A stretch of 64,000 nt of DNA from Escherichia phage vB_EcoM_PHB13: the sequence record MK573636, one strand, 5' to 3'. The position numbers were made by a program, and so were the translations under genes. Below are positions 3,858 to 57,194 of the stretch, piece by piece (position 1 is the first letter of the stretch; every line of letters begins with the position of its first letter). The notes beneath the pieces were generated by a model. That model saw only the letters and a list, made by a program, of their open reading frames with translations, was not told the origin of the DNA and made no database searches.

Positions 3858-3896
3858 TTGACATACAAGGGAGATTCTCTATAATGGGAGTCTCCC
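3858..3896 (+). promoter_or_regulatory. sigma70-type early promoter with embedded stem-loop (PeSL-like)
   Basis: TTGACA 3858-3863, 16-nt spacer, TATAAT 3880-3885; inverted repeat GGGAGA...TCTCCC (3869-3896) encloses the -10 and is followed by a T-run. Confidence 0.6.
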
Positions 3897-3919
3897 TTTT
3901 CTTTTATGAGGATTTAATA

Positions 3920-4219
3920 ATGAGCAAAAAGAATAACATGATGATGAGTATGGCAAAGTTCATGGAAGCAGACCTGATCAAAAATACAGTACAGCATGAA
4001 CGCCAGCGCGAAGCCGCAGTGATTGCAGAACAAGGTTTTCAGGTTATCCACAATCCACCTAAAGACACGGTTAAATCGAAATACAGAGACGATCTGAAAG
4101 ACCATGAAGTACGGGAACTGGTTAATGATCTGCGTGACATTGCCATCAAATATCATGGTTATCAGTGCTTACGAGAACTGATCGCAGAGCGAGTAATGGA
4201 TGCATTGAAAAAAGATTAA
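3920..4219 (+). CDS. hypothetical protein (99 aa)
   Basis: ORF starting MSKKNN at ATG 3920 downstream of the promoter; the ORF track extends it 5' from a TTG. Confidence 0.5.
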   Translation: MSKKNNMMMSMAKFMEADLIKNTVQHERQREAAVIAEQGFQVIHNPPKDTVKSKYRDDLKDHEVRELVNDLRDIAIKYHGYQCLRELIAERVMDALKKD

Positions 4220-4226
4220 AAATCTG

Positions 4227-4261
4227 TTGACACTGGATCGGGGATATATCATAATGTCCCC
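4227..4261 (+). promoter_or_regulatory. early promoter with stem-loop (PeSL-like)
   Basis: TTGACA 4227-4232, 17-nt spacer, CATAAT 4250-4255; stem GGGGATAT/ATGTCCCC around the -10. Confidence 0.55.
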
Positions 4262-4285
4262 ATCGAAAACAAAAGGTTGACTTAT

Positions 4286-4480
4286 ATGAAACCGTTTAAG
4301 AATGAAGAAACTCAAAAATTTTGTGAAAAAATTGCAGAAATCTACTTGACAGGGAATAAGGAAAAAGCTAATATTATGTTCAAAGAGTCGGTTTCCATGA
4401 TGAAAGTAGCACGCTGGGAACTGATCGCAATGCAAGACCAAATTCGTTATCTAGTAACAAAGGAGAATCAAAATGCGTAA
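4286..4480 (+). CDS. hypothetical protein (64 aa)
   Basis: ORF from ATG 4286 (MKPFKNEE) after AAAAGG; ORF track starts at TTG 4277. Confidence 0.5.
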   Translation: MKPFKNEETQKFCEKIAEIYLTGNKEKANIMFKESVSMMKVARWELIAMQDQIRYLVTKENQNA

Positions 4481-4667
4481 CCATTACATCGAACTGGCAA
4501 GCCGTAAAGTTTCCGATCTGAAAGGCGTAATTGCTTACTATGAAGAAGTCTTGAAAAACGAAATAGCTGATTGGGAACGTAAAGAATACAGCAAGTGCTT
4601 AGAGAAAAGCCGCGCTGAACTGGTTGACGCAGAAGCCCATCTGCAATGGGTGATTGAAAATGTATAA
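4473..4667 (+). CDS. hypothetical protein (64 aa)
   Basis: ORF overlapping the previous stop; GGAG RBS upstream. Confidence 0.5.
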   Translation: MRNHYIELASRKVSDLKGVIAYYEEVLKNEIADWERKEYSKCLEKSRAELVDAEAHLQWVIENV

Positions 4668-4677
4668 GGAGTAGAAA

Positions 4678-4935
4678 ATGAGTCGAAGTTTTGATTTTCT
4701 GATCGCCAAGTGTCATCGAGAAAAGAAATCGATGGACCTGTTTATGGAGTGTTTGAGGTATGAATATGCGCATCTTCATAAACACAAAATTGATCCGCAA
4801 GTTTCCTACGAAAACATCAAGAAATATGCGAAAGAAGTGATTGACAACGATTGCACCGTGACATATAATGCGTTTATTGATTTATGGGCGTGGGATGTAA
4901 TCTACGCAGAGATGGACAAAGAAGATTTTAATTAA
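4678..4935 (+). CDS. hypothetical protein (85 aa)
   Basis: ORF with AGGAG RBS upstream. Confidence 0.5.
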   Translation: MSRSFDFLIAKCHREKKSMDLFMECLRYEYAHLHKHKIDPQVSYENIKKYAKEVIDNDCTVTYNAFIDLWAWDVIYAEMDKEDFN

Positions 4936-4949
4936 GTGAGGATTATATT

Positions 4950-9301: not shown

Positions 9302-10673
9302 GGTGAAGATGGATAAAATTAGTCAAATTGTAAACACATTTACTTACCGCAGCCTTGAAAGCATTGTACATAATGAAGCTAAGGAATATGCGATCTATTC
9401 TGCCGAGGAACGCGGGATTCCTCAATTAGTGGATGGGCTTAAACCAGTGCAACGCTTTGTTATGGAGTGCGCACTTCAAAAGAGTAAAGGCGACCGTAAG
9501 AAATTCCGTAAGATGGCAGATATTGGATCTGGTGTTGCTGAGTTGGGTTATCACCACGGGGAAACTAATGCCGTAGAAGCCGGATCACTCATGGCGAATA
9601 CATGGAGCAATAATACTCCACTGCTTGACGGTCAAGGTAACTTCGGATCGCGTTTAGTCCAGAAAGCAGGTGCGGCACGTTATATCTTTGCTCGTGTGCA
9701 TGAAAACTTCTTTAAAATCTATAAAGATATGAATTGCGCACCTAAGCACGAAGATCTGGAACACATCCCGCCAGCATTCTACTTGCCAGTTGTGCCAATG
9801 GTATTGGCTAATGGTATTAGTGGTATTGCTACAGGGTATAAAACTGACATTTTACCGCATTCACTGGAAAGCCTTATTGAATGCACAGAGCTAGCACTTG
9901 CCGGAAAACTGGATAAAGAACCTAGTGTTCAATTCCCAAAATTCACGGGTAAAGTTATCCCGCGAGATGATCGCGATGGTGTGATTCTTGAGGGTACATA
10001 TGAACTAAACGGCAAGACTAAACTGACAATATCAGAAGTTCCTTATAAGTTCGACCGTGAAGAATATGTGGCGGTACTGGATGCGCTGGAAGAAAAAGAT
10101 CTGATTGTATCGTATAATGACCGTTGCTCTAAGGACGGATTCAGATTTGAAGTAACACTGAAACGCGATTATTTCAAAAGCGAAGATGAATCCGCTCGAC
10201 ATGAGCAAATCATGAAGGATTTTAAACTAACGCAGTTAGTAGCCCAGAATATCGTGGTAGTTAATGAACGTGGCTTAGTTGAAGTATTCGAGAAAGCGAG
10301 CGATCTGATCCGTCGATTCGTCGAAATCCGATTAGGGTATGTCGATAAACGCATTGAATTGATGCAAGCGGAAACGCTGGAAGCATACAATTATGCAATG
10401 GCTAAAGCCAAATTTATCGACCTTGTAATTAAGGGCGAAATCGAGCTACAGGGAAAGAAAAAGGCCGAGGTAATGCAATCCATCAATGGACATGAAAAAC
10501 TGCGTCCATACGCCGATAAGCTAGTTTCTATGCCATTGTATAGCGTTACTCAAGAAGAGTATGATCGACTGGTCAAAGATGCCGAGAAACATCATAGTGA
10601 ATATGAGTATTGGACAAAGACGACCGCAATGAAGGAATATAAGAAAGATCTTAAAGAACTTAAGAAGGGTTGA
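9294..10673 (+). CDS. 52: DNA topoisomerase II medium subunit (GyrA-like)
   Basis: GLKPVQRF...DIGSGVAELGYHHGE...LLDGQGNFGSR...RYIFARV matches T4 gp52; alternative start ATG 9309. Confidence 0.9.
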   Translation: MYEVKMDKISQIVNTFTYRSLESIVHNEAKEYAIYSAEERGIPQLVDGLKPVQRFVMECALQKSKGDRKKFRKMADIGSGVAELGYHHGETNAVEAGSLMANTWSNNTPLLDGQGNFGSRLVQKAGAARYIFARVHENFFKIYKDMNCAPKHEDLEHIPPAFYLPVVPMVLANGISGIATGYKTDILPHSLESLIECTELALAGKLDKEPSVQFPKFTGKVIPRDDRDGVILEGTYELNGKTKLTISEVPYKFDREEYVAVLDALEEKDLIVSYNDRCSKDGFRFEVTLKRDYFKSEDESARHEQIMKDFKLTQLVAQNIVVVNERGLVEVFEKASDLIRRFVEIRLGYVDKRIELMQAETLEAYNYAMAKAKFIDLVIKGEIELQGKKKAEVMQSINGHEKLRPYADKLVSMPLYSVTQEEYDRLVKDAEKHHSEYEYWTKTTAMKEYKKDLKELKKG

Positions 10674-10873
10674 TTATGAAAGAATATCCAGAAGGCGGTT
10701 ATATTGCATTTCTGTACAACAATAAAAAGATTGTGCCAATTGTCGTTGAAACACTGGAAGAATCCAACCGGATCACCAGTGAATCTCTGAGCAAATTAGC
10801 AGAGATGACAAACACGCCAGAACACAGAGCAAAGATCGACAGCTTGATGAAAGAATTATCAGAGAGGAAATAA
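10670..10873 (+). CDS. hypothetical protein (67 aa)
   Basis: ORF overlapping the gene 52 stop (ATGA). Confidence 0.5.
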   Translation: MIMKEYPEGGYIAFLYNNKKIVPIVVETLEESNRITSESLSKLAEMTNTPEHRAKIDSLMKELSERK

Positions 10874-11272: not shown

Positions 11273-11283
11273 CTGATTATTAA

Positions 11284-11310
11284 GCCGATCCTTGTGGTCG
11301 GCTTTTTTAT
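11284..11310 (+). terminator. rho-independent terminator
   Basis: Hairpin GCCGA...TCGGC followed by TTTTTT. Confidence 0.65.
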
Positions 11311-11322
11311 TTTAAAAAGTTG

Positions 11323-11351
11323 TTGACTTACAGAATCCAACATTGCATAAT
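11323..11351 (+). promoter_or_regulatory. sigma70-type early promoter
   Basis: TTGACT 11323-11328, 17-nt spacer, CATAAT 11346-11351, then conserved leader ending AGGAGAATCAAAG-ATG. Confidence 0.55.
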
Positions 11352-11382
11352 ACACCCATACCAAACAAAAGGAGAATCAAAG

Positions 11383-11659: not shown

Positions 11660-11878
11660 ATGAACTGGTATAAAATTTGGAAAAATCAGGTGGAGGCTTA
11701 TCTAGGGTATAAGCCCACCGACGAAGAATTACTCGATGCAATGTACGAAGACGGACTAAATCCGAAAGTAGCCGCGCGAGAATACGCGGAATGGATGAAG
11801 GTCGAAGATAACCTAGAGGCAACGAAAAATTTTCACGAAAATAATAAAAAAGCAGTTGACGCCAAAGGTCATCGATAG
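11660..11878 (+). CDS. hypothetical protein (72 aa)
   Basis: ORF from ATG 11660 (MNWYKIWK); ORF track starts at TTG 11645. Confidence 0.45.
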   Translation: MNWYKIWKNQVEAYLGYKPTDEELLDAMYEDGLNPKVAAREYAEWMKVEDNLEATKNFHENNKKAVDAKGHR

Positions 11879-11884
11879 TATTAT
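11856..11884 (+). promoter_or_regulatory. sigma70-type early promoter
   Basis: TTGACG 11856-11861, 17-nt spacer, TATTAT 11879-11884, then leader CCCATACCGAAACGAA. Confidence 0.5.
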
Positions 11885-11918
11885 ACTCCCATACCGAAAC
11901 GAACTGGAGGAAATAAAA

Positions 11919-12161
11919 ATGGTTAAAGTTAATGTTATCGAAGTTGCACTGTACGACGCTGGAATCTTCCTGAATGAAAAAGAAGCTGCCGTGCTCGATG
12001 AACTGAAAACTGTTTTTGTTCCTGTAGTAGAAGACGTTGAAGCAATTAAAATCGCTTCTCGTAAACTGTCTCGCGAAGCATTCGACATGATTGATCCGGT
12101 TTTCAAAGTTATGCACGAATGCGCGGTTATGATGACCGAAGAAGAAGCGAAAAATTTCTAA
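11919..12161 (+). CDS. hypothetical protein (80 aa)
   Basis: ATG 11919 (MVKVNVIEV) after GGAGGAA RBS. Confidence 0.55.
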   Translation: MVKVNVIEVALYDAGIFLNEKEAAVLDELKTVFVPVVEDVEAIKIASRKLSREAFDMIDPVFKVMHECAVMMTEEEAKNF

Positions 12162-12168
12162 AAACCAG

Positions 12169-12203
12169 TTGACGTAAAGAAACGGGAGTAGTAAGATACT
12201 CCC
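12169..12203 (+). promoter_or_regulatory. early promoter with stem-loop (PeSL-like, GGGAGTA family)
   Basis: TTGACG 12169-12174, 17-nt spacer, TAAGAT 12192-12197 in the loop of GGGAGTA...TACTCCC (12184-12203). Confidence 0.6.
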
Positions 12204-12226
12204 ATACCAAACGAAAGGAGAATCAC

Positions 12227-12439: not shown

Positions 12440-12446
12440 AAAGTAG

Positions 12447-12481
12447 TTGACACCGGATTAAGGGAGTAGTAAGATACTCCC
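12447..12481 (+). promoter_or_regulatory. early promoter with stem-loop (PeSL-like, GGGAGTA family)
   Basis: TTGACA 12447-12452, 17-nt spacer, TAAGAT 12470-12475; stem GGGAGTAGTAAGATACTCCC identical to the 12184 copy. Confidence 0.6.
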
Positions 12482-12508
12482 ATCAAGAAAAACATTGAGG
12501 AATATATT

Positions 12509-13309
12509 ATGAAAAACATTATCGCTGCGATCGTTCTTTCTACTACGGCTTTCGGTGCTAATGCTGCGTCCTTTGATTGCGCTAAAGCTACTACCAAACC
12601 AGAGAAGTTTATTTGTGCTAATGAGTCAATCTCCGCACTGGATTCTAAACTTAATGAAGTATATGTTAAGGCTGTTAAGATTGATCCATCTCTTAAACAA
12701 GAGCAACGCAACTGGAATAAAACTGTTCGTGATACAATGATCAACATCGGGCAAATACAGCCACTGGAGGCTGTATATAACGCTCAAATCCAAAACTTGA
12801 TGAACGTATTACCTAAAGAAGAAACAGCGTCAGAAAGCGATTCAGAGACTTCTGCGAAGGTTGAAGAAGAACAACCGAAACAAGAAGAAAAAGTGGTAGA
12901 GCAACCGAAGAAAGAAGAGAAAATCTATGGATCTATCACTTACCAGTGCATTGCAAAATTTACATGGAAAATCATTGATGGTATTGAGACAGACAGCCGC
13001 AAAGATCCATTGTATGGAAACTCTACTTATGGCAACAAGGGCGGAAAGCTGAAAATGACCATGACCGAAGGTGAATTGTCTTCTTTCGTATATGTTGATG
13101 AGCGCGAAGTGTTTAAATCAAATCTGACACGCAGCAAACAATATAAAAATATGGTTGTTGGTATGAGCAAACCGGATGTAGCAGGATACTTCAACGAGTA
13201 CAAAATGTGGGTAGGGGAAAACGATGAAATCCGCTTTGAAGTCATCGAGAAAGGTCGCATTAGCTATGATTATGGTACTCAATATGTTTGCGAATATAAG
13301 AAGGGTTAA
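12509..13309 (+). CDS. secreted protein with DUF1311 (LprI-like) N-terminal domain
   Basis: Signal peptide MKNIIAAIVLSTTAFGANA; then C..A...E.FIC...S...LD..LN..Y......QRNW...VRD pattern typical of DUF1311. Confidence 0.5.
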   Translation: MKNIIAAIVLSTTAFGANAASFDCAKATTKPEKFICANESISALDSKLNEVYVKAVKIDPSLKQEQRNWNKTVRDTMINIGQIQPLEAVYNAQIQNLMNVLPKEETASESDSETSAKVEEEQPKQEEKVVEQPKKEEKIYGSITYQCIAKFTWKIIDGIETDSRKDPLYGNSTYGNKGGKLKMTMTEGELSSFVYVDEREVFKSNLTRSKQYKNMVVGMSKPDVAGYFNEYKMWVGENDEIRFEVIEKGRISYDYGTQYVCEYKKG

Positions 13310-43561: not shown

Positions 43562-43563
43562 CA

Positions 43564-47200: not shown

Positions 47201-47207
47201 CCATTAT

Positions 47208-47552: not shown

Positions 47553-47565
47553 TTCAAAAAAGTTG

Positions 47566-47594: not shown

Positions 47595-47637
47595 ACACAC
47601 ATCAAAACGAAACACACTTTCTTAAGGAGAATCAAAA

Positions 47638-47949
47638 ATGAAATACATCGTAACGCTGCCAATGATTGACTTCGACGGAACCATGAACACCCAGAAGACC
47701 ATGAGCGCGGAGAACCAACTGAAAAACGCTACCCTGATTCGTGAAGTTCGCAAGGCACTGGCAAAAGAATTTAACACCAAAATTCATTCTGTAACTGGCG
47801 AACGTTTCGCGGATCATCTTGATATCAATATCAAACCAGTGCGCAACGGTGTTATCTCTGTAACAACCAACCGCCCACATGCTGACGCTGATAATCTGAC
47901 CGCTCGCGCAGAAGATGTAATTATGACCGTTATCATGGAAAAACTTTAA
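47638..47949 (+). CDS. hypothetical protein (103 aa)
   Basis: ORF after the cassette; shares A.R.VR.A.AKEFN.K with the 50954 ORF. Confidence 0.55.
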   Translation: MKYIVTLPMIDFDGTMNTQKTMSAENQLKNATLIREVRKALAKEFNTKIHSVTGERFADHLDINIKPVRNGVISVTTNRPHADADNLTARAEDVIMTVIMEKL

Positions 47950-47958
47950 AAAAAGTTG

Positions 47959-47988
47959 TTGACAGGGGAGGTTAAACTCCCCTATAAT
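47959..47988 (+). promoter_or_regulatory. early promoter with stem-loop (PeSL-like)
   Basis: TTGACA 47959-47964, stem GGGGAG-GTTAAA-CTCCCC, TATAAT 47983-47988. Confidence 0.6.
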
Positions 47989-48022
47989 ACACACATACCG
48001 AAACGAACTAGGAGAATCAATT

Positions 48023-48202
48023 ATGAACTTCAACGAAATCATCGCTAAAATCCGCTACAACGAAGAAACCATTGAACTGATGCAAAACAATATCACCAAT
48101 GGATATATGATTGCAGCGTCACAAGAAATCATTGATTTGACGGTAGCAGAAAATGCTCAGTTGAAACATCAACTTTCAACGGCTGGCGTGATTGTTATGT
48201 AA
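48023..48202 (+). CDS. hypothetical protein (59 aa)
   Basis: MNFNEIIAKIRYNEETIELMQ... after AGGAGAATCAATT-ATG. Confidence 0.45.
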   Translation: MNFNEIIAKIRYNEETIELMQNNITNGYMIAASQEIIDLTVAENAQLKHQLSTAGVIVM

Positions 48203-48219
48203 TAAAGAGAGGTGACTAA

Positions 48220-48522
48220 ATGGCAAAAGTTCAGGTAGGTGAGGTCTTCAAAATGGAAGACCATACCGTGGAAGAGATGAAAGGCGCAGTATTGAAAGTA
48301 ATTAATTCAATGTGGCGTAGTGTGCTTTACATCAACTTTATCGACGGTGATGTGTGGTGGGCTAGCGATAGCGATAAATGGGATATCAAGTTCTACAAAG
48401 GTCATACTCACTGGTTAGGATCAGAGGATGTTGTAGAAGTTCTGGCGGTTGATGTTATGCCAGGAGAGATCGAGAATCTTAGCGGAACAGCAAAAGAAGC
48501 ATTGACACGCCATTTTGCGTAA
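48220..48522 (+). CDS. H-x-H-W family paralogue 1 (100 aa)
   Basis: ...YINFIDGDV...KGHTHWLGSEDVVEVLAVDV... Confidence 0.55.
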   Translation: MAKVQVGEVFKMEDHTVEEMKGAVLKVINSMWRSVLYINFIDGDVWWASDSDKWDIKFYKGHTHWLGSEDVVEVLAVDVMPGEIENLSGTAKEALTRHFA

Positions 48523-48578
48523 TGTAGTATAACAATAATCGGGAGGGTAATACTCTCCCACAAATTGAGGATAATATT

Positions 48579-48770
48579 ATGTGTGGTCTTAAAATGGTTG
48601 CTGAATATAAGCGAACTGGTAATGTTATGATGTATCGACGCAATGCCAACGAAGAATGGAAACCTTCAAACCGCATTAAATCCATCCAGACGTTTATGAA
48701 TAACATCAAAGAAAACCTTTTCGTTAAGCGTGCTGGTGCTGGACATTGGGAAGTTTACGAAGCTGTATAA
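48579..48770 (+). CDS. hypothetical protein (63 aa)
   Basis: ORF after GAGGATAATATT-ATG; preceded by a stem GGGAG...CTCCC lacking a -35. Confidence 0.5.
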   Translation: MCGLKMVAEYKRTGNVMMYRRNANEEWKPSNRIKSIQTFMNNIKENLFVKRAGAGHWEVYEAV

Positions 48771-48786
48771 TTTTGAGGAAAATATT

Positions 48787-49095
48787 ATGGAACAAACTAA
48801 GCTATTTGTCGCGGAACCTTTTGTAAGAGACAATAAAAATCTGGCTAAAACAATCATTTTGTATTCGGATTGGATCTTTTATATCGATGGTAATTTAGAC
48901 GTATATTGTCGCACAGCTCCAACTGATTCGTTTTATATCGAAGAAAACGACACTCATAATCATTGGTATGATGGAAACGACAAAACCGAACTAGCTGTTG
49001 TCCTAGCGTCAGACGTAGAACCTGAAAACGCGGACAAAGTAGCAGACAAATTTATGAAGTACGCATATAAAGATAAAAATGAAGATGAAGAATAA
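48787..49095 (+). CDS. H-x-H-W family paralogue 2 (102 aa)
   Basis: ATG 48787; ...WIFYIDGNLDVY...DTHNHWYDGNDKTELAVVLASDV... Confidence 0.55.
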   Translation: MEQTKLFVAEPFVRDNKNLAKTIILYSDWIFYIDGNLDVYCRTAPTDSFYIEENDTHNHWYDGNDKTELAVVLASDVEPENADKVADKFMKYAYKDKNEDEE

Positions 49096-49102
49096 AAAGT
49101 TG

Positions 49103-49131
49103 TTGACAGGGGATCACCGATCCCCTATAAT
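49103..49131 (+). promoter_or_regulatory. early promoter with stem-loop (PeSL-like, GGGGATC family)
   Basis: TTGACA 49103-49108, stem GGGGATC-ACC-GATCCCC, TATAAT 49126-49131. Confidence 0.6.
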
Positions 49132-49165
49132 ACACACATACCAACGAGATATAGGAGAATCAAAA

Positions 49166-49333
49166 ATGTTCCAGACTAAAGCAGAATGCGAAGCATACAT
49201 TGTAGCAAACCACGGTGAAGACTACCTGAAATTCGATATCGTAGTAGCACAGAAGATCACCGGAATGGTTGCAAAATATCTGGGTGTTAAAGAAGGTTAC
49301 TATCCTAGCAACGCACCAGAAATTAACAAATAA
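49166..49333 (+). CDS. small protein (55 aa), copy 1 of a duplicated gene
   Basis: MFQTKAECEAYIVANHGEDYLKFDIVVAQKITGMVAKYLGVKEGYYPSNAPEINK; near-identical to 52424-52591. Confidence 0.6.
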   Translation: MFQTKAECEAYIVANHGEDYLKFDIVVAQKITGMVAKYLGVKEGYYPSNAPEINK

Positions 49334-49336
49334 TAG

Positions 49337-49371
49337 TTGACAATGATTAAAGGGAGTAGTAAGATACTCCC
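49337..49371 (+). promoter_or_regulatory. early promoter with stem-loop (PeSL-like, GGGAGTA family)
   Basis: TTGACA 49337-49342, TAAGAT 49360-49365 within GGGAGTAGTAAGATACTCCC. Confidence 0.6.
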
Positions 49372-49397
49372 ATCAAGACAACAAACGGAGAATCAAA

Positions 49398-49577
49398 ATG
49401 AAAGCTATCGAAGTTCAGAAGTACATGGAAATCATCGTTGAAAGTAAAGCACATTTAGTGTTGACTACTCACGTAGGATATGATAAAAATGTGCATATGC
49501 TGGTAGACAACATCGGCTGGATGAAGTTTAATCCTAACGAGAACGTACAAGCTCAAGAAATGACCATCCCTTTCTAA
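49398..49577 (+). CDS. hypothetical protein (59 aa)
   Basis: MKAIEVQKYMEIIVESKAHLVLTTHVGYDK...; not in the ORF track. Confidence 0.45.
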   Translation: MKAIEVQKYMEIIVESKAHLVLTTHVGYDKNVHMLVDNIGWMKFNPNENVQAQEMTIPF

Positions 49578-49589
49578 GAGGAATATATT

Positions 49590-49868
49590 ATGATGCGAAT
49601 TACTGCAACGCTGGATAAGACACACAAAGAAAGATTTTTCGGTATGATCTTAAAAACGCCGATTTTCGATAATTACCTTTATGTTGACTATAACGGTCAC
49701 ATTAGCTATAAATGTAAAAATGATATTCGTGATTCCTTTGGTGATAAATCACAAGCCGATATTCACGATCATTGGTGGAACCATGACGAACCTTTACGGG
49801 TTATCGCAGTTGATGTAAAAACAACAAAAGAAGCTGATAAGGTAGTGAATGATTATGAGCAAATTTAA
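49590..49868 (+). CDS. H-x-H-W family paralogue 3 (92 aa)
   Basis: ...NYLYVDYNGHISY...DIHDHWWNHDEPLRVIAVDV... Confidence 0.55.
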   Translation: MMRITATLDKTHKERFFGMILKTPIFDNYLYVDYNGHISYKCKNDIRDSFGDKSQADIHDHWWNHDEPLRVIAVDVKTTKEADKVVNDYEQI

Positions 49869-50064
49869 AGATTATAAAGCATATCAACAGATCTTGCGAG
49901 TATACGAACCAGAGTTCGCCGAAAAGATGATGGAAGATGCATCAAAATGCCCGTCCTTTTCTGGAAACAAAAACCATTATTCTACTGGTATTGTATCATG
50001 GAAAGAAACCGCATATACTCAACAATGGATAGATGTGTTTTCAAAAACTCTTGATTGGTGTTAA
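49855..50064 (+). CDS. small protein, MSKFKDY family copy 1
   Basis: MSKFKDYKAYQQI...MMEDASKC...; tandem paralogue of the next ORF. Confidence 0.5.
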   Translation: MSKFKDYKAYQQILRVYEPEFAEKMMEDASKCPSFSGNKNHYSTGIVSWKETAYTQQWIDVFSKTLDWC

Positions 50065-50066
50065 TT

Positions 50067-50282
50067 ATGAGTAAATTTAAAGATTATCGAGCATATAAAG
50101 CGATCTGCGATATATTCGATGAAAAGACCGCTCATGCAATGATGGAAGATGCAGAACAATATGAATCATTCGTCAATTCCAAAGATTGCACAGTAAACGA
50201 GGTTGTGTGCTGGAAAGATACAAAGTATGAAGAAAAATGGATTACTGTGTATTACGGAGAACTAGAATATGAAATTAACTAA
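50067..50282 (+). CDS. small protein, MSKFKDY family copy 2
   Basis: MSKFKDYRAYKAI...MMEDAEQY... Confidence 0.5.
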   Translation: MSKFKDYRAYKAICDIFDEKTAHAMMEDAEQYESFVNSKDCTVNEVVCWKDTKYEEKWITVYYGELEYEIN

Positions 50283-50589
50283 AAAGATTTTCCCAGAATT
50301 GCGTAACTGTCTGTTACTGGTTACTGAATATAAACCTTATACGATCTACTTGTATGTTGATGAAAATCTGAAAATCCGTTACTATGATTATACGTCTCCA
50401 GTAATGAGATCATTTGCTCACGCGATAGCAAACAATTGTATGAATCATAATCATTGGGTAAGTGATAATGATCATGATGCGTCAGAAGTTGTAGTGATCG
50501 CATGGAATCTATCACCAGCGGAAGCAGATCAAGCACGCATTAAGCATTATGCGAAAAACAATTGGTTTGACCTTATAAGTGAGGACTAA
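50269..50589 (+). CDS. H-x-H-W family paralogue 4 (106 aa)
   Basis: ...YTIYLYVDENLKIRYYDY...NHNHWVSDNDHDASEVVVIAWNL... Confidence 0.55.
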   Translation: MKLTKKIFPELRNCLLLVTEYKPYTIYLYVDENLKIRYYDYTSPVMRSFAHAIANNCMNHNHWVSDNDHDASEVVVIAWNLSPAEADQARIKHYAKNNWFDLISED

Positions 50590-50593
50590 TATT

Positions 50594-50872
50594 ATGTTCA
50601 AAGTAGGTGATAAGTTTATTCTTAGTCGTGATATTCTCCCTAATCTGAAAGGTTGTATCATCAATCCTAGTAAAAATTCATGGTTTTATCTGTTTATCGA
50701 CGACAAACTGAATGTACGCGCCGAATATAAAGAAGGTCTTCGTACTGGTCTAGGTTTCTTTCACGATCATGATCATAGCCATTGGCTAAACGGTGGATTC
50801 GAAGCAACGGTGCTAGCGGTTGATGTGACTTACACGAACATCATAGAAAAATATCAAAAAATTATTTTATAA
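50594..50872 (+). CDS. H-x-H-W family paralogue 5 (92 aa)
   Basis: ATG 50594 after GAGGAC; ...WFYLFIDDKLNV...HDHDHSHWLNGGFEATVLAVDV... Confidence 0.55.
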   Translation: MFKVGDKFILSRDILPNLKGCIINPSKNSWFYLFIDDKLNVRAEYKEGLRTGLGFFHDHDHSHWLNGGFEATVLAVDVTYTNIIEKYQKIIL

Positions 50873-50878
50873 AAAGTG

Positions 50879-50913
50879 TTGACATAAGATCGGGTGTATA
50901 GCATAATACACCC
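50879..50913 (+). promoter_or_regulatory. early promoter with stem-loop (PeSL-like, GGGTGTAT family)
   Basis: TTGACA 50879-50884, 17-nt spacer, CATAAT 50902-50907 in loop of GGGTGTAT...ATACACCC. Confidence 0.6.
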
Positions 50914-50953
50914 ATCGAAACGAGATACACTTTCTAACTAGGAGAATCAAATT

Positions 50954-51241
50954 ATGGCATACATCACTATCACTCTGAAAGTTAACAAATTTGCTCACGC
51001 TGCACACGAAACCGATAATGCAATCCGTAACAACAAGTTTGCACGTCTGGTACGCGATGCAGTAGCTAAAGAGTTCAACTTCAAATTTGCAGATGGTAAA
51101 GTTATCACTAAATGGACTCATGACGGCGAAACTAAAGTAGAACTTGCTGACAACTTCGCAAATCAGGAATATGCACACCGCCGCATCAATGAAATCATCA
51201 GCGATGAACTCTACTACGGAGTACAGGAAGGTTTGTTTTAA
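50954..51241 (+). CDS. hypothetical protein (95 aa)
   Basis: ORF after the cassette; weak similarity to the 47638 ORF. Confidence 0.55.
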   Translation: MAYITITLKVNKFAHAAHETDNAIRNNKFARLVRDAVAKEFNFKFADGKVITKWTHDGETKVELADNFANQEYAHRRINEIISDELYYGVQEGLF

Positions 51242-51245
51242 TATA

Positions 51246-51267
51246 GGGGGCGTTAAGCCCCTTTTAA
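51246..51267 (+). terminator. rho-independent terminator
   Basis: Hairpin GGGGC-GTTAA-GCCCC followed by TTTT. Confidence 0.55.
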
Positions 51268-51290
51268 TCTATCTGAATGAGGATATCACT

Positions 51291-51599
51291 ATGAAAAATC
51301 TTGTAGTTGAATTTACCCGCGAGAATTTACCACAATTTCGCAATTCTCTGCTTAAACTAGAGAACAGTAATTATGATGTATATTTTTACATCACCGAAGA
51401 TCTAGAGATCCTTTACGCTGATTACCCAGGTCCGATCCGTACCTTCGAAACCGCATCAAAATATAAAAATGTGCACGGTCATGAGCACTGGTTACGAGAA
51501 AACCCAGGTCGCAAGAAAGCACGCGTTAAAGTGTTGGCGATTGACATAACACCAGCATACGCCGACCGGATTGCACAGAATGATTATTTGTCTAAATGA
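51291..51599 (+). CDS. H-x-H-W family paralogue 6 (102 aa)
   Basis: ATG 51291; ...YDVYFYITEDLEILYADY...HGHEHWLRENPGRKKARVKVLAIDI... Confidence 0.55.
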   Translation: MKNLVVEFTRENLPQFRNSLLKLENSNYDVYFYITEDLEILYADYPGPIRTFETASKYKNVHGHEHWLRENPGRKKARVKVLAIDITPAYADRIAQNDYLSK

Positions 51600-51606
51600 T
51601 TTCATT

Positions 51607-51633
51607 AGCCGACCTTAGTGTCGGCTTTTTTAT
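51607..51633 (+). terminator. rho-independent terminator
   Basis: Hairpin AGCCGAC...TCGGCT followed by TTTTTTATT. Confidence 0.6.
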
Positions 51634-51657
51634 TGCATAAAATTTAAAAAAAAGGCA

Positions 51658-51686
51658 TTGACACCAGATCACGCCTATAGCATAAT
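51658..51686 (+). promoter_or_regulatory. early promoter (degenerate GGGTGTAT-family cassette)
   Basis: TTGACA 51658-51663, 17-nt spacer, CATAAT 51681-51686; right arm ATACACCC kept, left arm degenerate. Confidence 0.5.
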
Positions 51687-51726
51687 ACACCCATCGAAAC
51701 GAGATACCACTTAGGAGAATCAAACA

Positions 51727-51996
51727 ATGGCGCTGACTAAAACCACTACCAACTTTGCAAAACGTCACGGCTTCGACCTTGAAATCAATAGCTTTAACGA
51801 TTACACCCTTCTGTGTGTATATGAAATCGAAAATGATTGCGAGTGGATGTTCAGCTATCGCGTAAACGAAGACGGATCTTTCACTTGGAACGGAAATATC
51901 TATCTTGCACAGGAAGTAAAAGAAGAACTTCCGGCGACTATCAAAGATGAGAAACATTTACGTCAAGTTTTAAAATTTATTTCTGAAAATATCTAA
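51727..51996 (+). CDS. hypothetical protein (89 aa)
   Basis: ORF after TTAGGAGAATCAAACA-ATG. Confidence 0.55.
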   Translation: MALTKTTTNFAKRHGFDLEINSFNDYTLLCVYEIENDCEWMFSYRVNEDGSFTWNGNIYLAQEVKEELPATIKDEKHLRQVLKFISENI

Positions 51997-52003
51997 AAAG
52001 TTG

Positions 52004-52032
52004 TTGACACCAAAGTAAGAACATAGCATAAT
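52004..52032 (+). promoter_or_regulatory. early promoter (degenerate GGGTGTAT-family cassette)
   Basis: TTGACA 52004-52009, 17-nt spacer, CATAAT 52027-52032, then ATACACCC. Confidence 0.5.
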
Positions 52033-52065
52033 ACACCCATACCGAAACGAACTGGAGAATCAAAA

Positions 52066-52347
52066 ATGAAATTCATCAAAGCAACCGAAATCCTGAAAAA
52101 CAAAGAAGCATACATCGGAAACATCGTTGGTATGAACATTCGCGGCGCTGGTAGCCAGTGGACCAAACTGGTTGATGTTAAAGCTAAAGGCGATAAAATT
52201 GAGTTCACTGTAAAAATGCTTACTCATAACGCACATATGGGTATCAAGACAAAAACGATGGCAGCAGATAAAAGCATCAACTATCAGGATCTGGGTGATT
52301 GGCTGAACTGGTGCAAAATGCACAACATCGAAACTAATCACGAATAA
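52066..52347 (+). CDS. hypothetical protein (93 aa)
   Basis: ORF after GGAGAATCAAAA-ATG. Confidence 0.55.
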   Translation: MKFIKATEILKNKEAYIGNIVGMNIRGAGSQWTKLVDVKAKGDKIEFTVKMLTHNAHMGIKTKTMAADKSINYQDLGDWLNWCKMHNIETNHE

Positions 52348-52361
52348 TTTTAAAAAAGTTG

Positions 52362-52390
52362 TTGACGGGGATCGGGAGATCCCCTATAAT
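52362..52390 (+). promoter_or_regulatory. early promoter with stem-loop (PeSL-like, GGGGATC family)
   Basis: TTGACG 52362-52367, stem GGGGATC-GGGA-GATCCCC, TATAAT 52385-52390. Confidence 0.6.
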
Positions 52391-52423
52391 ACACACATAC
52401 CGAAACGAAATAGGAGAATCAAA

Positions 52424-52591
52424 ATGTTCGAGACTAAAGCAGCATGTGAAGCATATATCATTGAAACCCACGGCGAAGATTATCTGAAATTTGACATTGT
52501 AGTAGCACAGAAGATTGTAGGGATGGTTGCGAAATACCTCGGAGTTAAAGAAGGTTACTATCCAAGCAACGCACCGGAAATTAACAAATAA
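52424..52591 (+). CDS. small protein (55 aa), copy 2 of a duplicated gene
   Basis: MFETKAACEAYIIETHGEDYLKFDIVVAQKIVGMVAKYLGVKEGYYPSNAPEINK; about 90% amino-acid identity to 49166-49333. Confidence 0.6.
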   Translation: MFETKAACEAYIIETHGEDYLKFDIVVAQKIVGMVAKYLGVKEGYYPSNAPEINK

Positions 52592-52606
52592 TTTTTATAA
52601 AAAGTG

Positions 52607-52635
52607 TTGACAGGGGAGACACCCTCCCCTATAAT
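52607..52635 (+). promoter_or_regulatory. early promoter with stem-loop (PeSL-like)
   Basis: TTGACA 52607-52612, stem GGGGAG-ACACC-CTCCCC, TATAAT 52630-52635. Confidence 0.6.
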
Positions 52636-52675
52636 ACAACCATCAAGACGAGATACCACTTAGGAGAATCAAACA

Positions 52676-52927
52676 ATGGCTAACATCGAAACCGCAAAGA
52701 AAATCGCTAAAGACCTGAACGTTAAAGGCTTCCGTAAACTGAAATTACAGCGTGTACGCTACACCATCGGCAAACAGTGCTCTTTCATGAGCGAAGAAGT
52801 TGCTAACAGCCTCATTGATAACCTGATTGCGGCTGGCTGGGAAGTTGCGGATCTGAAAACTTGCCGCGAACTGGCTAACAAAGGTCTTTTAGATTCTGTT
52901 ACTATAAAACCAATGGGGGCAGCGTGA
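52676..52927 (+). CDS. hypothetical protein (83 aa), first gene of a coupled operon
   Basis: MANIETAKKIAKDL...; first 16 coding nt identical to the 54805 ORF; stop overlaps the next start (GTGA). Confidence 0.55.
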   Translation: MANIETAKKIAKDLNVKGFRKLKLQRVRYTIGKQCSFMSEEVANSLIDNLIAAGWEVADLKTCRELANKGLLDSVTIKPMGAA

Positions 52928-53169
52928 AAAGAAAATTAATTAAACGAAATAAGGAATTTTTGAATAACTGCATTAAGGTTGCTAATGGTTGGCCTTTGTT
53001 CCTCTTCCTTTATGATTGGTATTCTAAACAATCGGTAGAGGAAACACGACACTATAAGAAGATCAGAAAAGAATCATATACAAAACAAGGCCGCATTAAC
53101 GGACTTTACTTAATGTGGCACGGCAAAGAACCTTCTAAAATCTGTGTTGGATTAAAGGGGCGTATATGA
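52924..53169 (+). CDS. hypothetical basic protein (81 aa)
   Basis: GTG start overlapping the previous stop; its stop overlaps the next start (ATGA). Confidence 0.45.
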   Translation: MKRKLIKRNKEFLNNCIKVANGWPLFLFLYDWYSKQSVEETRHYKKIRKESYTKQGRINGLYLMWHGKEPSKICVGLKGRI

Positions 53170-54731: not shown

Positions 54732-54738
54732 AAAGTTG

Positions 54739-54768
54739 TTGACAGGGGGATCGGTGATCCCCTATAAT
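54739..54768 (+). promoter_or_regulatory. early promoter with stem-loop (PeSL-like, GGGGATC family)
   Basis: TTGACA 54739-54744, stem GGGGGATC-GGT-GATCCCC, TATAAT 54763-54768. Confidence 0.6.
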
Positions 54769-54804
54769 GCAAACATACCGAAACGAACTACTAAGGAGTA
54801 TCAA

Positions 54805-55017
54805 ATGGCTAACATCGAAATCATCATTACCGACGTAACTTATGACCGCATTAACGAAATCGGTACTGCTTTGCTAGAAGATGGAACAACTCGCACCATC
54901 AACTACGCAGAATACGTTGAAATGCGCGGTTGTATTAAACGAGTAGGAAAATATATCCTGATTGAAAAAGACTATTCAGGATACACATTAGAGCAATTGC
55001 TCGATGGTGCATTATAA
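54805..55017 (+). CDS. hypothetical protein (70 aa)
   Basis: MANIEIIITDVTYDRINEIG... after TAAGGAGTATCAA-ATG. Confidence 0.55.
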   Translation: MANIEIIITDVTYDRINEIGTALLEDGTTRTINYAEYVEMRGCIKRVGKYILIEKDYSGYTLEQLLDGAL

Positions 55018-55023
55018 TAAATT

Positions 55024-55044
55024 GGGGCGTTAAGCCCCCTTTTC
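55024..55044 (+). terminator. rho-independent terminator
   Basis: Hairpin GGGGC-GTTAA-GCCCC followed by CTTTT; same loop as the 51246 terminator. Confidence 0.55.
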
Positions 55045-55084
55045 ATAAATATAGGTTTATAGGTTATCAACTAGAGGATATAAA

Positions 55085-57136
55085 ATGTTTAACTTAGAAA
55101 TCGACGATCTAATGATTGAATCTTTCGAGAAATGGCTGTTGACGGAAGAGGAAGAAAACTTTGGCAGTATTGCTCCGGTACAGTGCTTAAAGCCTAAGCA
55201 GAATCCTAAACAGCTTTTTGCAGTACAGACACGCGATAAAGATGTGATTGTCCGTCTTTGTAACTTCACCAACAAAACACCTAAAATCATTCGTATGGGT
55301 GACAAGACCGCACATGTTGTACTGTGCGAAATGAACAAAAGCGGTCGTATTGTACAGCTTAAAAATGGTCTAGGCGATAACCCGATTGCAGTTATGGCAA
55401 GTGCTTTTGATGTGGTTATGGAAACAGCCCGTAAAGCGCAATTAGACGCTGTTATGTTCCGTTTTAACGTATCCCGCATGAAAGGTAAGACCGAACTGGT
55501 TAAGCGCGTTATAGAGCGTTTGGTGCGTCGTACACCGAAGTTTGAAGTATTCCAGCAGGAAGTAATGACCAGCAAAAAGATCGCTTTAGTTGTTGTCAAG
55601 CGTCGAGGTATGGCGATTGATAAGATTAAAGGGATTAAACTTGATGAATCCTTGTTCACTAAAGTAGAAAGTGATTTAGGTGATCGCTGGGTATCTAAAG
55701 CTACTGGCGAATCTCTGACTAAAGATGAAGCATATGCGGCTAGTCTTGTGTCAGAAGAAGAACGAAACGCGGAAGCAGAACAACGCGTAGCGGCTAAATC
55801 TCGTTTGACTAAAGAAGAAATGCTGAAAACTCAAGCGACCTATAACAGCGACTATGTGAATCATCCAGAAAAAATTAATCTTAAACCGGAAGAAGATATC
55901 ACCGAAGCAGAACCTAAGAAACAGTTTAATACTCTGATTGACCGTCAAGCCTTAGAACGTTCAACCGCCCGTTCTCTGAATGACTGGACAAGTGATATTA
56001 TCACTCGCTATGGTTTCATGCGTACTATTTTTGAAAGCGAAGCCGATGCAAAATACGCAGTAAGCGAACTGGTAAAAGTTCAGGACCAATATGATCCGTT
56101 GTCTGCGGAAGTTATCGCAGCATCAATCAAACGCTTAAAAGAAATCATGAGCGAGGAAGTATTCGAAAACAAGATCACTGCGTTGGCAATGGATCGAGTA
56201 GACCAGTCTATGCCAGCAGATGTAAAAGCTGAAATGCTGCGTAGTCATATCACACAGATTAAAACCGATGCCCTTCGTAATGTTGCCTCCGGTATGTTTG
56301 AAGCAATTGCAAGTAACATGGGTGAAATGATGGCAGATATTGATCTTGACCTACCAGGCGCGGAAGGTTTTGTGTTGAGCGAATATGCGGATGCAGCATA
56401 CATCAATATGAACAACTTCCTAACCGATCGTAAGCTGGATGAGTTCGAAGGGATCGCTGACCCAGAAGAATTGGTCAAGATGTGCGACGCACTGGATAAT
56501 GCCTTCGCTAACTATGGCGTTAAACTTGATCCGGGTACTATTCTGTATCGTGGTATGGACTTCCGGTCTCAAATGTGGGAAACTGCACGTAAGCAAAAAG
56601 CGTTTTACTTTAAAAACTATGTGAGCACTTCCCTTGCACCTAACATTTTTGGCGGCTGGAATGCAAACGTGGCTAGTGCCGTTGCTGGTGTTGATTCTAT
56701 GGCTGGCTCTCGCGGTGAAGGTGGCGCGAATGTTGCTTTCTCCATTGCTGGCGCGGAAAACATCCCTGTATTGCCAGTAGGTAACAAAGCATTTGCTTAC
56801 AAAGAATGCGAGATTTTACTTCCTCGCGGTGTTGTGTTATCCTTTGATACGGTAACTCGTGCTACGGCATCGACGGATTCACAAGAAACATATTACATTG
56901 AGGCACATATTATGAACAAAAGTGAACTGGCAGCATTACAAGAATCTGGCGAAATGATCGCGGATGGTGATGCATTCATCCGTGAAGGTGTTGTTAAACC
57001 TGCTTCTGACCTGTCTTTCTCCAGATTCATTACAGAAGCTAAAACCGAACGTAAGAAAGCAGATAAGGCAACTCTACGTCAGCTTATCGCTGATCTGGTG
57101 TCTGTAGACGCAATGCCAGATAAATTTAAAATGTAA
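55085..57136 (+). CDS. alt: Alt ADP-ribosyltransferase (683 aa)
   Basis: Length equals T4 Alt (682 aa); catalytic region LYRG...YVSTSL...ECEILLPRG (R / STS / E-x-E) and C-terminus ...PDKFKM match T4 Alt (...PLKFVM). Confidence 0.85.
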   Translation: MFNLEIDDLMIESFEKWLLTEEEENFGSIAPVQCLKPKQNPKQLFAVQTRDKDVIVRLCNFTNKTPKIIRMGDKTAHVVLCEMNKSGRIVQLKNGLGDNPIAVMASAFDVVMETARKAQLDAVMFRFNVSRMKGKTELVKRVIERLVRRTPKFEVFQQEVMTSKKIALVVVKRRGMAIDKIKGIKLDESLFTKVESDLGDRWVSKATGESLTKDEAYAASLVSEEERNAEAEQRVAAKSRLTKEEMLKTQATYNSDYVNHPEKINLKPEEDITEAEPKKQFNTLIDRQALERSTARSLNDWTSDIITRYGFMRTIFESEADAKYAVSELVKVQDQYDPLSAEVIAASIKRLKEIMSEEVFENKITALAMDRVDQSMPADVKAEMLRSHITQIKTDALRNVASGMFEAIASNMGEMMADIDLDLPGAEGFVLSEYADAAYINMNNFLTDRKLDEFEGIADPEELVKMCDALDNAFANYGVKLDPGTILYRGMDFRSQMWETARKQKAFYFKNYVSTSLAPNIFGGWNANVASAVAGVDSMAGSRGEGGANVAFSIAGAENIPVLPVGNKAFAYKECEILLPRGVVLSFDTVTRATASTDSQETYYIEAHIMNKSELAALQESGEMIADGDAFIREGVVKPASDLSFSRFITEAKTERKKADKATLRQLIADLVSVDAMPDKFKM

Positions 57137-57153
57137 TTTTTAAGAAATAATGG

Positions 57154-57194
57154 TTGACTCAAACGGGGACTAGTTTTATACTAGCCCCGTTTTC
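57154..57194 (+). promoter_or_regulatory. promoter with stem-loop that may also terminate alt transcripts
   Basis: TTGACT 57154-57159; stem GGGGACTAG...CTAGCCCC around TATACT (57177-57182), followed by GTTTTCTGTT. Confidence 0.5.

Follow-up and report, generated by a model that had tools for sequence, protein, structure and literature searches.

Promoter cassettes with built-in hairpins (PeSLs) in Escherichia phage vB_EcoM_PHB13: anatomy, selected pairing and association with gene gain and loss

Genes of the analysed stretch and its relatives

The DNA analysed here is a stretch of 64,000 nucleotides (nt) from Escherichia phage vB_EcoM_PHB13 (sequence record MK573636), hereafter the window, in which small early open reading frames (ORFs) are preceded by short promoter cassettes that often carry a G+C-rich hairpin. 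These cassettes are the published promoter-early stem-loops (PeSLs) of RB49-type phages (Arbiol et al. 2010; Comeau et al. 2014) and no new kind of element. It is highly probable that, as PeSLs of Krischvirus, they are compact intergenic modules of promoter and hairpin that insulate small early genes and also provide portable homology.

Megablast of positions 47000-53000 and 1-25000 identified the stretch as Krischvirus, an RB49-like T4-type coliphage. About 58-90 phage records were matched, with RB49, phi1, JSE, 011D4, MIZ6 and KFS-EC among the best, and the best matches were 94-97% identical; for RB49, phi1 and JSE the identity is about 95-97%. Gene names were transferred from the phi1 and RB49 annotation; the plus strand of the window corresponds to the minus strand of both records, and the RB49 record ends at window position 7059. 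The first part of the window carries gp39-rIIA-rIIB-gp52 and ORFans 255-268, followed by t and the tail-fibre genes 37-34 on the minus strand. In the middle lie rnh ... gp32, frd, td, nrdA/B, ORFs 225-229, denA, rnlA, pseT, cd, gp31 and ligase, and the last part holds the hyperplastic region ORF185-212 (47.2-55.1 kb) and then alt. The ORF185-212 region is 94-98% identical to phi1 and RB49, with cassettes at the same junctions. As to accessory cargo, ORF211 is present as in RB49, ORF192 is missing as in phi1, and ORF 11919-12161 is an extra ORF of the window that phi1, RB49 and JSE lack. Seven relatives (phi1, RB49, 011D4, kaaroe, SFHK24, JSE and Brandy) were compared in full and eight more in part. 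Genes were called in a strand-aware manner, by strand blocks, and all intergenic regions 5' of plus-strand genes were then listed.

Catalogue of the promoter cassettes

Our catalogue comprises 25 cassettes with a near-consensus sigma-70 promoter; all are intergenic and lie on the plus strand, with clusters at 11.3-12.5, 35.7-38.8 and 47.5-54.8 kb. A G+C-rich hairpin lies within the promoter in 17 of them (free energy, dG, -7.3 to -20 kcal/mol); the other 8 have none there. An earlier note on this DNA had proposed at least 17 repeated cassettes with stems in three sequence families, and the motifs that it quoted were found at the positions that it gave. The family-1 stem GGGAGTAGTAAGATACTCCC is exact at 12184, 12462, 38762 and 49352, with variants at 38257 and 38536, and shuffled sequences gave zero matches. 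GGGGATC...GATCCCC of family 2 was found at 49109, 52367 and 54746, with related stems at 47572, 47965, 52613 and 35694, and the family-3 stem GGGTGTATAGCATAATACACCC at 50892. The three families thus hold as quoted, but two copies described as degenerate members of family 3 (51661 and 52021) are stemless (dG about 0), and the stem at 47572, though present, has the arms GGGGAT/ATCCCC and not GATC on both sides. The end members at 3858 and 57154 are cassettes as well, yet of different sequences: both are full terminators, hairpin plus T-run, with the -10 in the loop or the 3' arm.

The cassettes are listed below by class (dG in kcal/mol); class D comprises intergenic regions with a hairpin alone.

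Class A, hairpin within the promoter:
3858-3919, plus strand: promoter in a canonical terminator; -35 at 3858-3863, hairpin at about 3868-3897 (GGGAGA...TCTCCC) around -10 TATAAT at 3880-3885, T-run, Shine-Dalgarno sequence (SD), ATG at 3920; dG -20.1, 0 of 300 spacer shuffles equally stable
4220-4285, plus strand: cassette; -35 at 4227; hairpin GGGGATAT/ATGTCCCC at about 4240-4261 with one U.G wobble, overlapping -10 CATAAT at 4250-4255; dG -14.6
12162-12226, plus strand: family 1; -35 at 12169; hairpin 12184-12203, GGGAGTAgtaagaTACTCCC; -10 TAAGAT at 12192-12197 in the loop/3' arm; dG -11.9
12440-12508, plus strand: family 1; -35 at 12447; hairpin 12462-12481
35681-35748, plus strand: family 2; spacer filled by hairpin 35694-35711, GCGGGGAgaaaTCCCCGC; -10 TATAAT at 35712-35717; dG -14.9; no difference in hairpin or core promoter among the 6 relatives with this junction
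38229-38301, plus strand: family 1; -35 at 38243; hairpin 38258-38275 with a G.U wobble; dG -7.3, orthologues -11 to -14
38521-38588, plus strand: family-1 variant; hairpin 38536-38555, GGGGGTA/TACCCCC, compensatory A-U to G-C
38739-38808, plus strand: family 1; hairpin 38762-38781
47553-47637, plus strand: family 2, orthologue of PeSL211/210; hairpin 47571-47589; dG -10.0
47950-48022, plus strand: family 2; hairpin 47964-47983, GGGGAG/CTCCCC; 18-nt spacer; dG -13.8
49096-49165, plus strand: family 2, orthologue of PeSL206/205; hairpin 49108-49126; dG -12.7
49334-49397, plus strand: family 1; hairpin 49352-49371
50873-50953, plus strand: family 3; hairpin GGGTGTAT/ATACACCC at 50892-50913 around -10 CATAAT; dG -13.8
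52348-52423, plus strand: family 2, between ORF193 and ORF191; hairpin 52367-52384; dG -13.7; phi1-type single PeSL
52592-52675, plus strand: family 2; hairpin 52612-52630, GGGGAG/CTCCCC
54732-54804, plus strand: chimeric family-2 cassette; upstream half from the RB49 pre-ORF186 cassette, downstream half from the pre-ORF185 cassette
57137-57214, plus strand: cassette after alt; -35 at 57154; hairpin at about 57161-57192, then T-run; -10 TATACT inside the hairpin; dG -18.9

Class B, ordinary terminator (hairpin plus T-run) followed by a promoter that has no stem but belongs to the same sequence family:
11273-11382, plus strand: terminator 11282-11304 with T-run; -35 at 11323, CATAAT, leader ACACCCATACC, ribosome-binding site (RBS) GGAGAATCAAA; dG 0
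30771-30896, plus strand: terminator 30779-30802 with T-run; -35 at 30834
37909-38009, plus strand: terminator 37918-37941 with T-run; -35 at 37957
51600-51726, plus strand: terminator 51607-51626 with T-run; promoter family-3-like, -35 at 51658

Class C, stemless promoter without terminator (hairpin nowhere in the first three, in the 5' untranslated region only in the fourth):
11846-11918, plus strand: -35 at 11856; lies 3'-terminally in ORF 11660-11878 and drives ORF 11919-12161
29738-29801, plus strand: consensus early promoter for gene 32, its -35 overlapping the gene 59 end; AY343333 labels it 'early RB49 promoter'
51997-52065, plus strand: family-3-like; -35 at 52004; dG 0 in the window and in 7 of 7 relatives
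48502-48578, plus strand: PeSL subclass 'downstream of -10'; promoter within the terminal part of ORF 48220-48522; hairpin GGGAGGGtaaTACTCTCCC at about 48543-48561, with a G.U pair

Matches to TTGACA-N16-18-TATAAT at 11 or more of the 12 positions numbered 32 on the plus strand and 0 on the minus strand, against an expectation of 1.16 per strand. The 16 nt upstream of the -35 are 79% A+T (52% A), compared with 60% A+T for the window, and the upstream stop codon of stem-bearing cassettes lies 0-17 nt before the -35. Downstream of the promoter, an A/C-rich leader, A(C/T)(A/T)C(A/C)CAT(A/C)(C/G)..., is common to 20 of the 25 cassettes. Conservation of leader and RBS, which had been claimed, is borne out by 9 matches to the leader motif CCCATACCGAAACGA where 1.3 were expected and 8 to the RBS motif AGGAGAATCAAAATG where 0.4 were expected; the RBS GGAGAATCAAA occurs in about half of the cassettes. 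Pfam families were found for none of the seven cassette-linked cargo ORFs examined, and an Rfam scan of the whole window gave 0 matches at gathering score.

Fifteen more sigma-70 promoters at the same threshold (at least 11 of 12) lie within plus-strand coding sequences, mostly in the replication-gene block (examples at 1810, 4841, 6799, 26821, 27378, 28284, 28417, 28966, 33289, 41455 and 42459), with none on the minus strand. At 22601-22629 (plus strand, antisense to gene 34), TTGACC-N17-TATAAT is the sole strong plus-strand promoter match inside a minus-strand late-gene block; it is probably fortuitous, because chance alone should give about one match of this kind on each strand.

Correspondence to the PeSLs of RB49 and phi1

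PeSLs were defined in RB49 and phi1 (Arbiol, Comeau, Kutateladze, Adamia and Krisch 2010, Genome Biol Evol 2:140, PMC2839356) as a near-consensus sigma-70 promoter with an AT-rich upstream tract, a Gn-loop-Cn stem-loop, and an SD with start codon, located in hyperplastic regions before ORFans. There are 52 of them in phi1 and 51 in RB49, in five positional subclasses, the commonest with the stem-loop between the -35 and -10 or over the -10 (PMC2839356). The suspected identity with these RB49-type elements was confirmed: the genome is a Krischvirus, its cassettes are syntenic with those of RB49 and phi1, and the published definition fits. Promoter, AT-rich tract, SD with start codon, hyperplastic location, indels and synteny were all found, and so was the stem-loop, within the promoter in 17 of 25 cassettes and in the 5' untranslated region of one more (48502), while 4 stemless cassettes have a terminator just upstream. 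The likeness extends to genus, position, A-rich tract, TTGACA-N17-TATAAT, stem placement and association with indels; no essential difference was seen, only a different cargo.

For promoter activity, for the effect of a stem-loop on expression and for mini-circles we rely on the literature. Reporter assays covered PeSL206/205, PeSL193/192 and the stem-loop of PeSL211/210; promoter activity was shown for PeSL206/205, and the PeSL211/210 stem-loop reduced lacZ expression to an extent comparable to rrnB T1 (PMC2839356). The same study found 10 of 14 differential ORFans next to a PeSL and gave PCR and encapsidation evidence for PeSL mini-circles (PMC2839356). Comeau, Arbiol and Krisch (2014, PMC4122927) extended the PeSL/PmSL concept to T4/PST and KVP40/nt-1. 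Those motifs share the composite logic of promoter plus stem-loop and the association with differential ORFs, but their promoters (TTTACW...TAYWAT and TTGYVH...TAWWAT) and stems (AGnA-loop-TCnT and A3-4G3-loop-C3T3-4) differ, and they are analogues, not homologues, of the window cassettes.

In a scan of IMG/VR, the flank pattern AAAGTTGTTGACR-N17-18-TATAMTRCAMMCAT matched only ECD7, a second Krischvirus contig and four further contigs. In the four non-Krischvirus contigs (L008/L012, L009/L019) the flank and the start of the leader read AAAGTTGTTGACA-N17-TATAMT-ACAMMCAT, and the spacer contains no hairpin; in L009 only tRNA genes align to annotated phages, which makes it uninformative on cassettes, and a widening of the cassette family by way of this flank pattern was therefore dropped.

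Selected base pairing in the hairpins

The stability of the stems was compared with shuffles of the spacer alone, the -10 and downstream sequence being held fixed. Folding, which the earlier note had suggested as a check, bore out its inverted repeats: for 16 of the 17 in-promoter stems at most 1% of the spacer shuffles were as stable as the observed sequence. No such hairpin was found at the 14 consensus promoters tested within coding sequences, and the median dG was -11.9 for cassettes vs. -2.8 for these promoters (Mann-Whitney p = 0.004). Absence of the inverted repeats from orthologous positions had been named as an argument against the cassettes. Instead, at the orthologous junctions of the 7 relatives, stem-bearing cassettes stay stem-bearing (dG -10 to -15.5) and stemless ones stemless, with few exceptions, and the loops vary.

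Alignments of related cassettes showed compensatory changes on both sides of a pair. In the register-37 group, pair 17-32 is UA, GC or AU and pair 18-31 is GC, AU or GU; in the register-39 group, AU, GC and GU occur at pair 19-32, and in the spacer-only group UA and GC at pair 12-18. The outer GGG/CCC pairs are invariant. In families 1 and 3 the 3' arm is the conserved -6..-1 segment (ACTCCC, ACACCC, ACCCCC or ATCCCC), with which the 5' arm pairs in two different registers, and this suggests that the 5' arm arose more than once. The hairpins within the promoters are under selection and not incidental. It should be taken into account against this that covariation was read from mutually related sequences, picked because they carry stems.

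G-T pairs in PeSL stems have been noted before (PMC2839356). A systematic scan showed that internal non-Watson-Crick pairs in otherwise intact stems are all G.U on the plus strand, in 5 distinct hairpins vs. 0 with A.C, and together with cases read from the group alignments there are about 7 independent G.U wobble events. One terminal A.C pair was seen, in ECD7. The A.C cases of a looser wobble count were discarded as artefacts, stems extended past their real end, or one coding-region site. The bias towards plus-strand wobbles favours pairing in the plus strand, as RNA or as non-template single-stranded DNA, over a symmetric DNA cruciform, though the number of events (about 7) is small and the sequences had been selected as stem-bearing. 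RNA and plus-strand single-stranded DNA look alike in such a comparison.

These data bear on a DNA-level alternative, in which the hairpin would affect its own promoter or recombination. As a cruciform or single-strand hairpin it might present or occlude the -10, or a phage protein, for instance an endonuclease VII-like structure-specific nuclease or a GGGG/CCCC-binding factor, might target it for early shut-off or for the start of an exchange. The stems do sit exactly at the spacer or the -10, the classical position of an operator, their outer GGG/CCC pairs never change, and early shut-off is unexplained in RB49-type phages, which lack MotA and AsiA (PMC1524935). Yet the inner stem sequence varies by family with pairing kept and the loops are free to vary, one-sided changes are only plus-strand G.U, which is unexpected for a duplex-binding site or a symmetric cruciform, and stems of 6-8 bp extrude poorly. 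A palindromic operator was rejected as the main explanation on these grounds (family-varying stems and G.U-only wobbles), and action at the DNA level as a whole appears very unlikely.

An enrichment of GATC (Dam sites) in family-2 stems was also considered and dropped as unconvincing (11 seen vs. 6.2 expected in promoter cores).

Position relative to the start site and role as terminators

We inferred the transcription start (+1) to lie about 7 nt after the -10. Given this predicted +1, all in-promoter stems end at or before -1. The RB49 early promoter consensus agrees with mapped 5' ends and is C-rich at -3..-1 (Nolan et al., PMC1524935). A stem upstream of the predicted +1 would therefore be absent from the transcript of its own cassette and would fold only in read-through RNA from upstream. 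The earlier note had treated the stem as a part of the promoter; it does lie in or around the spacer, but wholly upstream of the predicted +1, and its best-supported role is that of a terminator or attenuator of upstream transcripts. A separate canonical terminator upstream was found for 0 of 17 stem-bearing vs. 4 of 8 stemless cassettes (Fisher p = 0.0055). Two of the stem-bearing cassettes, 3858 and 57154, are themselves complete terminators with the -10 inside, and the Ec_Makalu_001 record (MN894885) independently labels the PeSL206/205 hairpin 'terminator'. These observations support the view that the in-promoter hairpins would substitute for ordinary terminators. Such an RNA role also accounts for the exclusivity with ordinary terminators, a further point against action at the DNA level.

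Several results weigh against a terminator role. The stems of families 1-3 were not called by a simple terminator scan, unlike 51607, 51245 and 55024; a hairpin with an immediate U-tract, as in canonical rho-independent terminators, is present solely at 3858 and 57154, and the tails after the stems of families 1-3 are UAUAAUAC or AUACC, with no U-tract. Classical intrinsic termination is thus doubtful for these families, and filing the in-promoter stems as canonical intrinsic terminators was rejected, as the simple scan does not call them. The sole published terminator test concerns one stem-loop in a lacZ fusion, where termination and processing or stability are inseparable (PMC2839356). Finally, 8 cassettes do without a stem, and 52004 among them lacks a terminator as well, so the hairpin cannot be an obligatory part. 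The hairpin of the 48502 cassette would open its own transcript and is possibly an mRNA-stabilising 5' stem-loop rather than a terminator.

Ribosome-binding sites resembling RegB/S1 targets

The T4 RegB/S1 site has the 11-nt consensus GGAGRAYARAA (Durand et al. 2006, PMC1702504). For RB49, a divergent regB (PMC3014915) and cleaved sites (PMC3014915, PMC1702504) have been described; no regB was located in the 64-kb window. The cassette RBS GGAGAAUCAAA matches the T4 consensus at 10 of 11 positions, and RBSs with a 10/11 match precede 12 of 25 cassette-led genes vs. 1 of 69 other plus-strand genes. Like the T4 sites, they lie in the SD of an early gene, 3' of an unstructured A/C-rich leader; unlike them, they have C at position 8, where A is strongly preferred in T4. 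It is plausible that the cassette RBS is a RegB target; the likeness may be functional or may merely reflect the common ancestry of the cassettes.

RNA cleavage also enters into a second alternative, in which the hairpin is a 3'-end or processing element rather than a terminator. Read-through early RNA would be cut, by RNase E or by RegB at the GGAG of the RBS, and trimmed back to the hairpin, stabilising the upstream message, while the RBS GGAGAAUCAAA would time the inactivation of the downstream message. The lack of a U-tract after most stems suits this idea, as do the distance of 15-30 nt from the upstream stop codon, the excess of RegB/S1-like sites before cassette-led genes, and the RegB encoded by RB49 with its cleaved sites (PMC3014915, PMC1702504). 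It is difficult to reconcile with a lacZ reduction comparable to rrnB T1, which exceeds what a stabiliser predicts (PMC2839356), and with the C at position 8 (PMC1702504); moreover, RB49 RegB is divergent and the similarity of the RBSs is explicable by shared descent. We regard this alternative as quite improbable.

Gene gain and loss at the cassettes

Rearrangements were collected from chained BLAST alignments against the 7 relatives and merged, giving about 25 loci. The proposed modular shuffling of genes is supported, as 13 of these loci touch a cassette and one cassette is a chimera. Breakpoint edges fall inside cassette intervals in 19 of 54 cases, the intervals making up 3.7% of the compared sequence. 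With gene junctions as the null, which is fairer than sequence coverage, 13 of 23 junction events touch a cassette compared with 22 of 89 gene junctions that have one (p = 0.0011). The dispersed repeats of the window are the cassettes themselves (49-119 nt, 73-94% identity by self-BLAST), and the overlaps of 17-98 nt at the junctions are the cassette repeated on either side of an extra gene. The events at cassettes are:

11349-83: insertion in SFHK24 and Brandy
11811/12168: extra ORF 11919-12161 in the window; right edge at cassette 12162
12429-58: insertions of 196-491 bp in 6 relatives
29713-32: 588-bp insertion in 011D4
30851-93: insertions of 350-1466 bp in 6 of 7 relatives (all but JSE); 33-43 nt junction overlap
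37999/38234: ORF228 replaced in 011D4; left edge at cassette 37909
38600/38734: ORF226 lost in SFHK24, JSE and Brandy; edges at cassettes 38521 and 38739
47187/47545 and 47187/47932: ORF211, or ORF211 and ORF210, absent
51608-705: ORF195/196 in RB49 and Brandy, 406 extra bp; 98-nt junction overlap
52347: ORF192 in RB49; a different ORF in JSE
52423/52584: ORF191 lost in Brandy; edge at cassette 52592
54729-805: ORF186 missing from the window

The cassette at 54739 is near-identical to the RB49 pre-ORF186 cassette through the -35, the -10 and CATACCGAAACGA, with differences mainly in the stem-loop, and beyond CATACCGAAACGA it is identical to the pre-ORF185 cassette. It appears to be a chimera left by deletion of ORF186, with a crossover visible in the shared leader CATACCGAAACGA; for the ORF192 event, the AT-rich tract had been suggested instead. 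ORF186 is present in all 7 fully compared relatives. KFS-EC (9840-10712) also lacks ORF186 between ORF187 and ORF185, so that at least one more Krischvirus either shares the deletion seen at 54732-54804 or has it as a recurrent event.

A duplicated module of 242 nt (85% identity, 49094-49334 vs. 52353-52592) consists of a family-2 cassette and a 55-aa ORF, the ORF205/ORF191 paralogues; here cassette and gene have been copied together, as a whole unit, inside the hyperplastic region.

The clustering of breakpoints at cassettes would also be expected of a stem that starts exchange at the DNA level, and Arbiol et al. speculated on a recombination protein binding GGGG...CCCC (PMC2839356). Stemless cassettes rearrange too, however (11349-83, 30851-93 and 51608-705), and the sole mapped crossover is in the leader, outside the stem. 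Against a role of cassettes in gene exchange stands the finding that about half of the rearrangements lie away from them: two HNH endonuclease genes that only the window has, mosaics in the tail fibres, plain gene junctions, and in relatives insertions of homing endonucleases or methylases.

A combined model of insulation and exchange

In the model that we favour, of insulating modules that are also portable homology, the A-rich, UP-like tract and the near-consensus sigma-70 promoter would allow use by host RNA polymerase immediately after infection. The hairpin would fold in read-through RNA from upstream and attenuate or terminate it, or supply the upstream message with a 3' hairpin, and in this way insulate each small early gene. 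An unstructured A/C-rich leader would be followed by a strong RBS (RegB/S1-like in half of the copies) and the start codon of a small ORFan. Co-oriented cassettes (50-120 nt, 73-94% identical) would serve as homology for the recombination machinery of the phage, so that genes between two of them could be deleted, duplicated, inserted or swapped with expression intact. More elaborate versions seem unlikely: that the stem is a U-tract-independent 3'-end or attenuation signal and leader and RBS a RegB/S1 decay site, together timing the birth, insulation and death of each early message in phages without MotA and AsiA; or that the stem is an entry site of a structure-specific nuclease for active, targeted exchange.

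PeSLs are among the few concrete candidates for the 'linker' sequences of the theory of modular phage evolution, and they explain how small accessory genes are swapped in T4-type phages without regulatory breakage. The present genome is an independent replication of the PeSL pattern; exclusivity with terminators, plus-strand wobble bias, the crossover in the leader and the RegB/S1-like RBS are confirmatory or minor additions. In annotation, such intergenic repeats deserve the label PeSL.

Comparison with other mobile and hairpin-bearing elements

The morons of lambdoid phages (Hendrix et al. 2000), as recounted in PMC2839356, are likewise single accessory genes with their own promoter and terminator; in that account they have no conserved repeated linker flanking them and are thought to move by illegitimate recombination. 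The window cassettes join promoter and terminator in one fused element, which itself supplies the homology. Integron gene cassettes, with their attC hairpins, are similar in their arrays of small promoter-dependent units, in a recombination site formed by a folded single strand and in the circular intermediates that have been proposed, but they need an integrase and a single Pc promoter, whereas each window cassette has its own promoter. To our knowledge, no integrase acts on PeSL cassettes. Exchange of the window cassettes looks like ordinary homologous recombination because of the chimera at 54739. The virion RNA polymerase of phage N4 recognises hairpin promoters on extruded single-stranded DNA. 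There, too, a short G+C-rich hairpin is integral to an early promoter; the window cassettes differ in that they have a plain sigma-70 consensus and exist in stemless copies, and in that the evidence favours a role at the RNA level.

Other features of the window

Before nrdA, the intergenic region 33367-33436 contains a hairpin only (GGGGGGCgaaaGCCCCC), without T-run or promoter, and is an insertion site, occupied by a DNA methylase in 011D4 and by a 311-bp segment in SFHK24.

Two plus-strand endonuclease genes are missing in all 7 relatives. ORF 26355-26774 lies in an insertion of 560-570 bp (window 26202-26763), in a divergent region with gene 34 on one side and the rnh-side early genes on the other; its product has HNH_3 and AP2 domains and is homing-endonuclease-like, and there is no cassette at the site. 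ORF 43564-44175 lies in a 640-bp insertion (window 43548-44189) between gp31.1 and gp31 and encodes a NUMOD4 and HNH_3 endonuclease; it represents a second route of gene gain, independent of PeSLs.

In ORF 12509-13309, a mosaic segment of about 370 bp (12910-13279) aligns with phi1, and the other six relatives have unrelated sequence of similar length there. Gene 37 (distal tail fibre, minus strand) has a variable block at 16927-18584 that is unalignable to six relatives (all but JSE), with differing boundaries, as expected of a receptor-binding mosaic.

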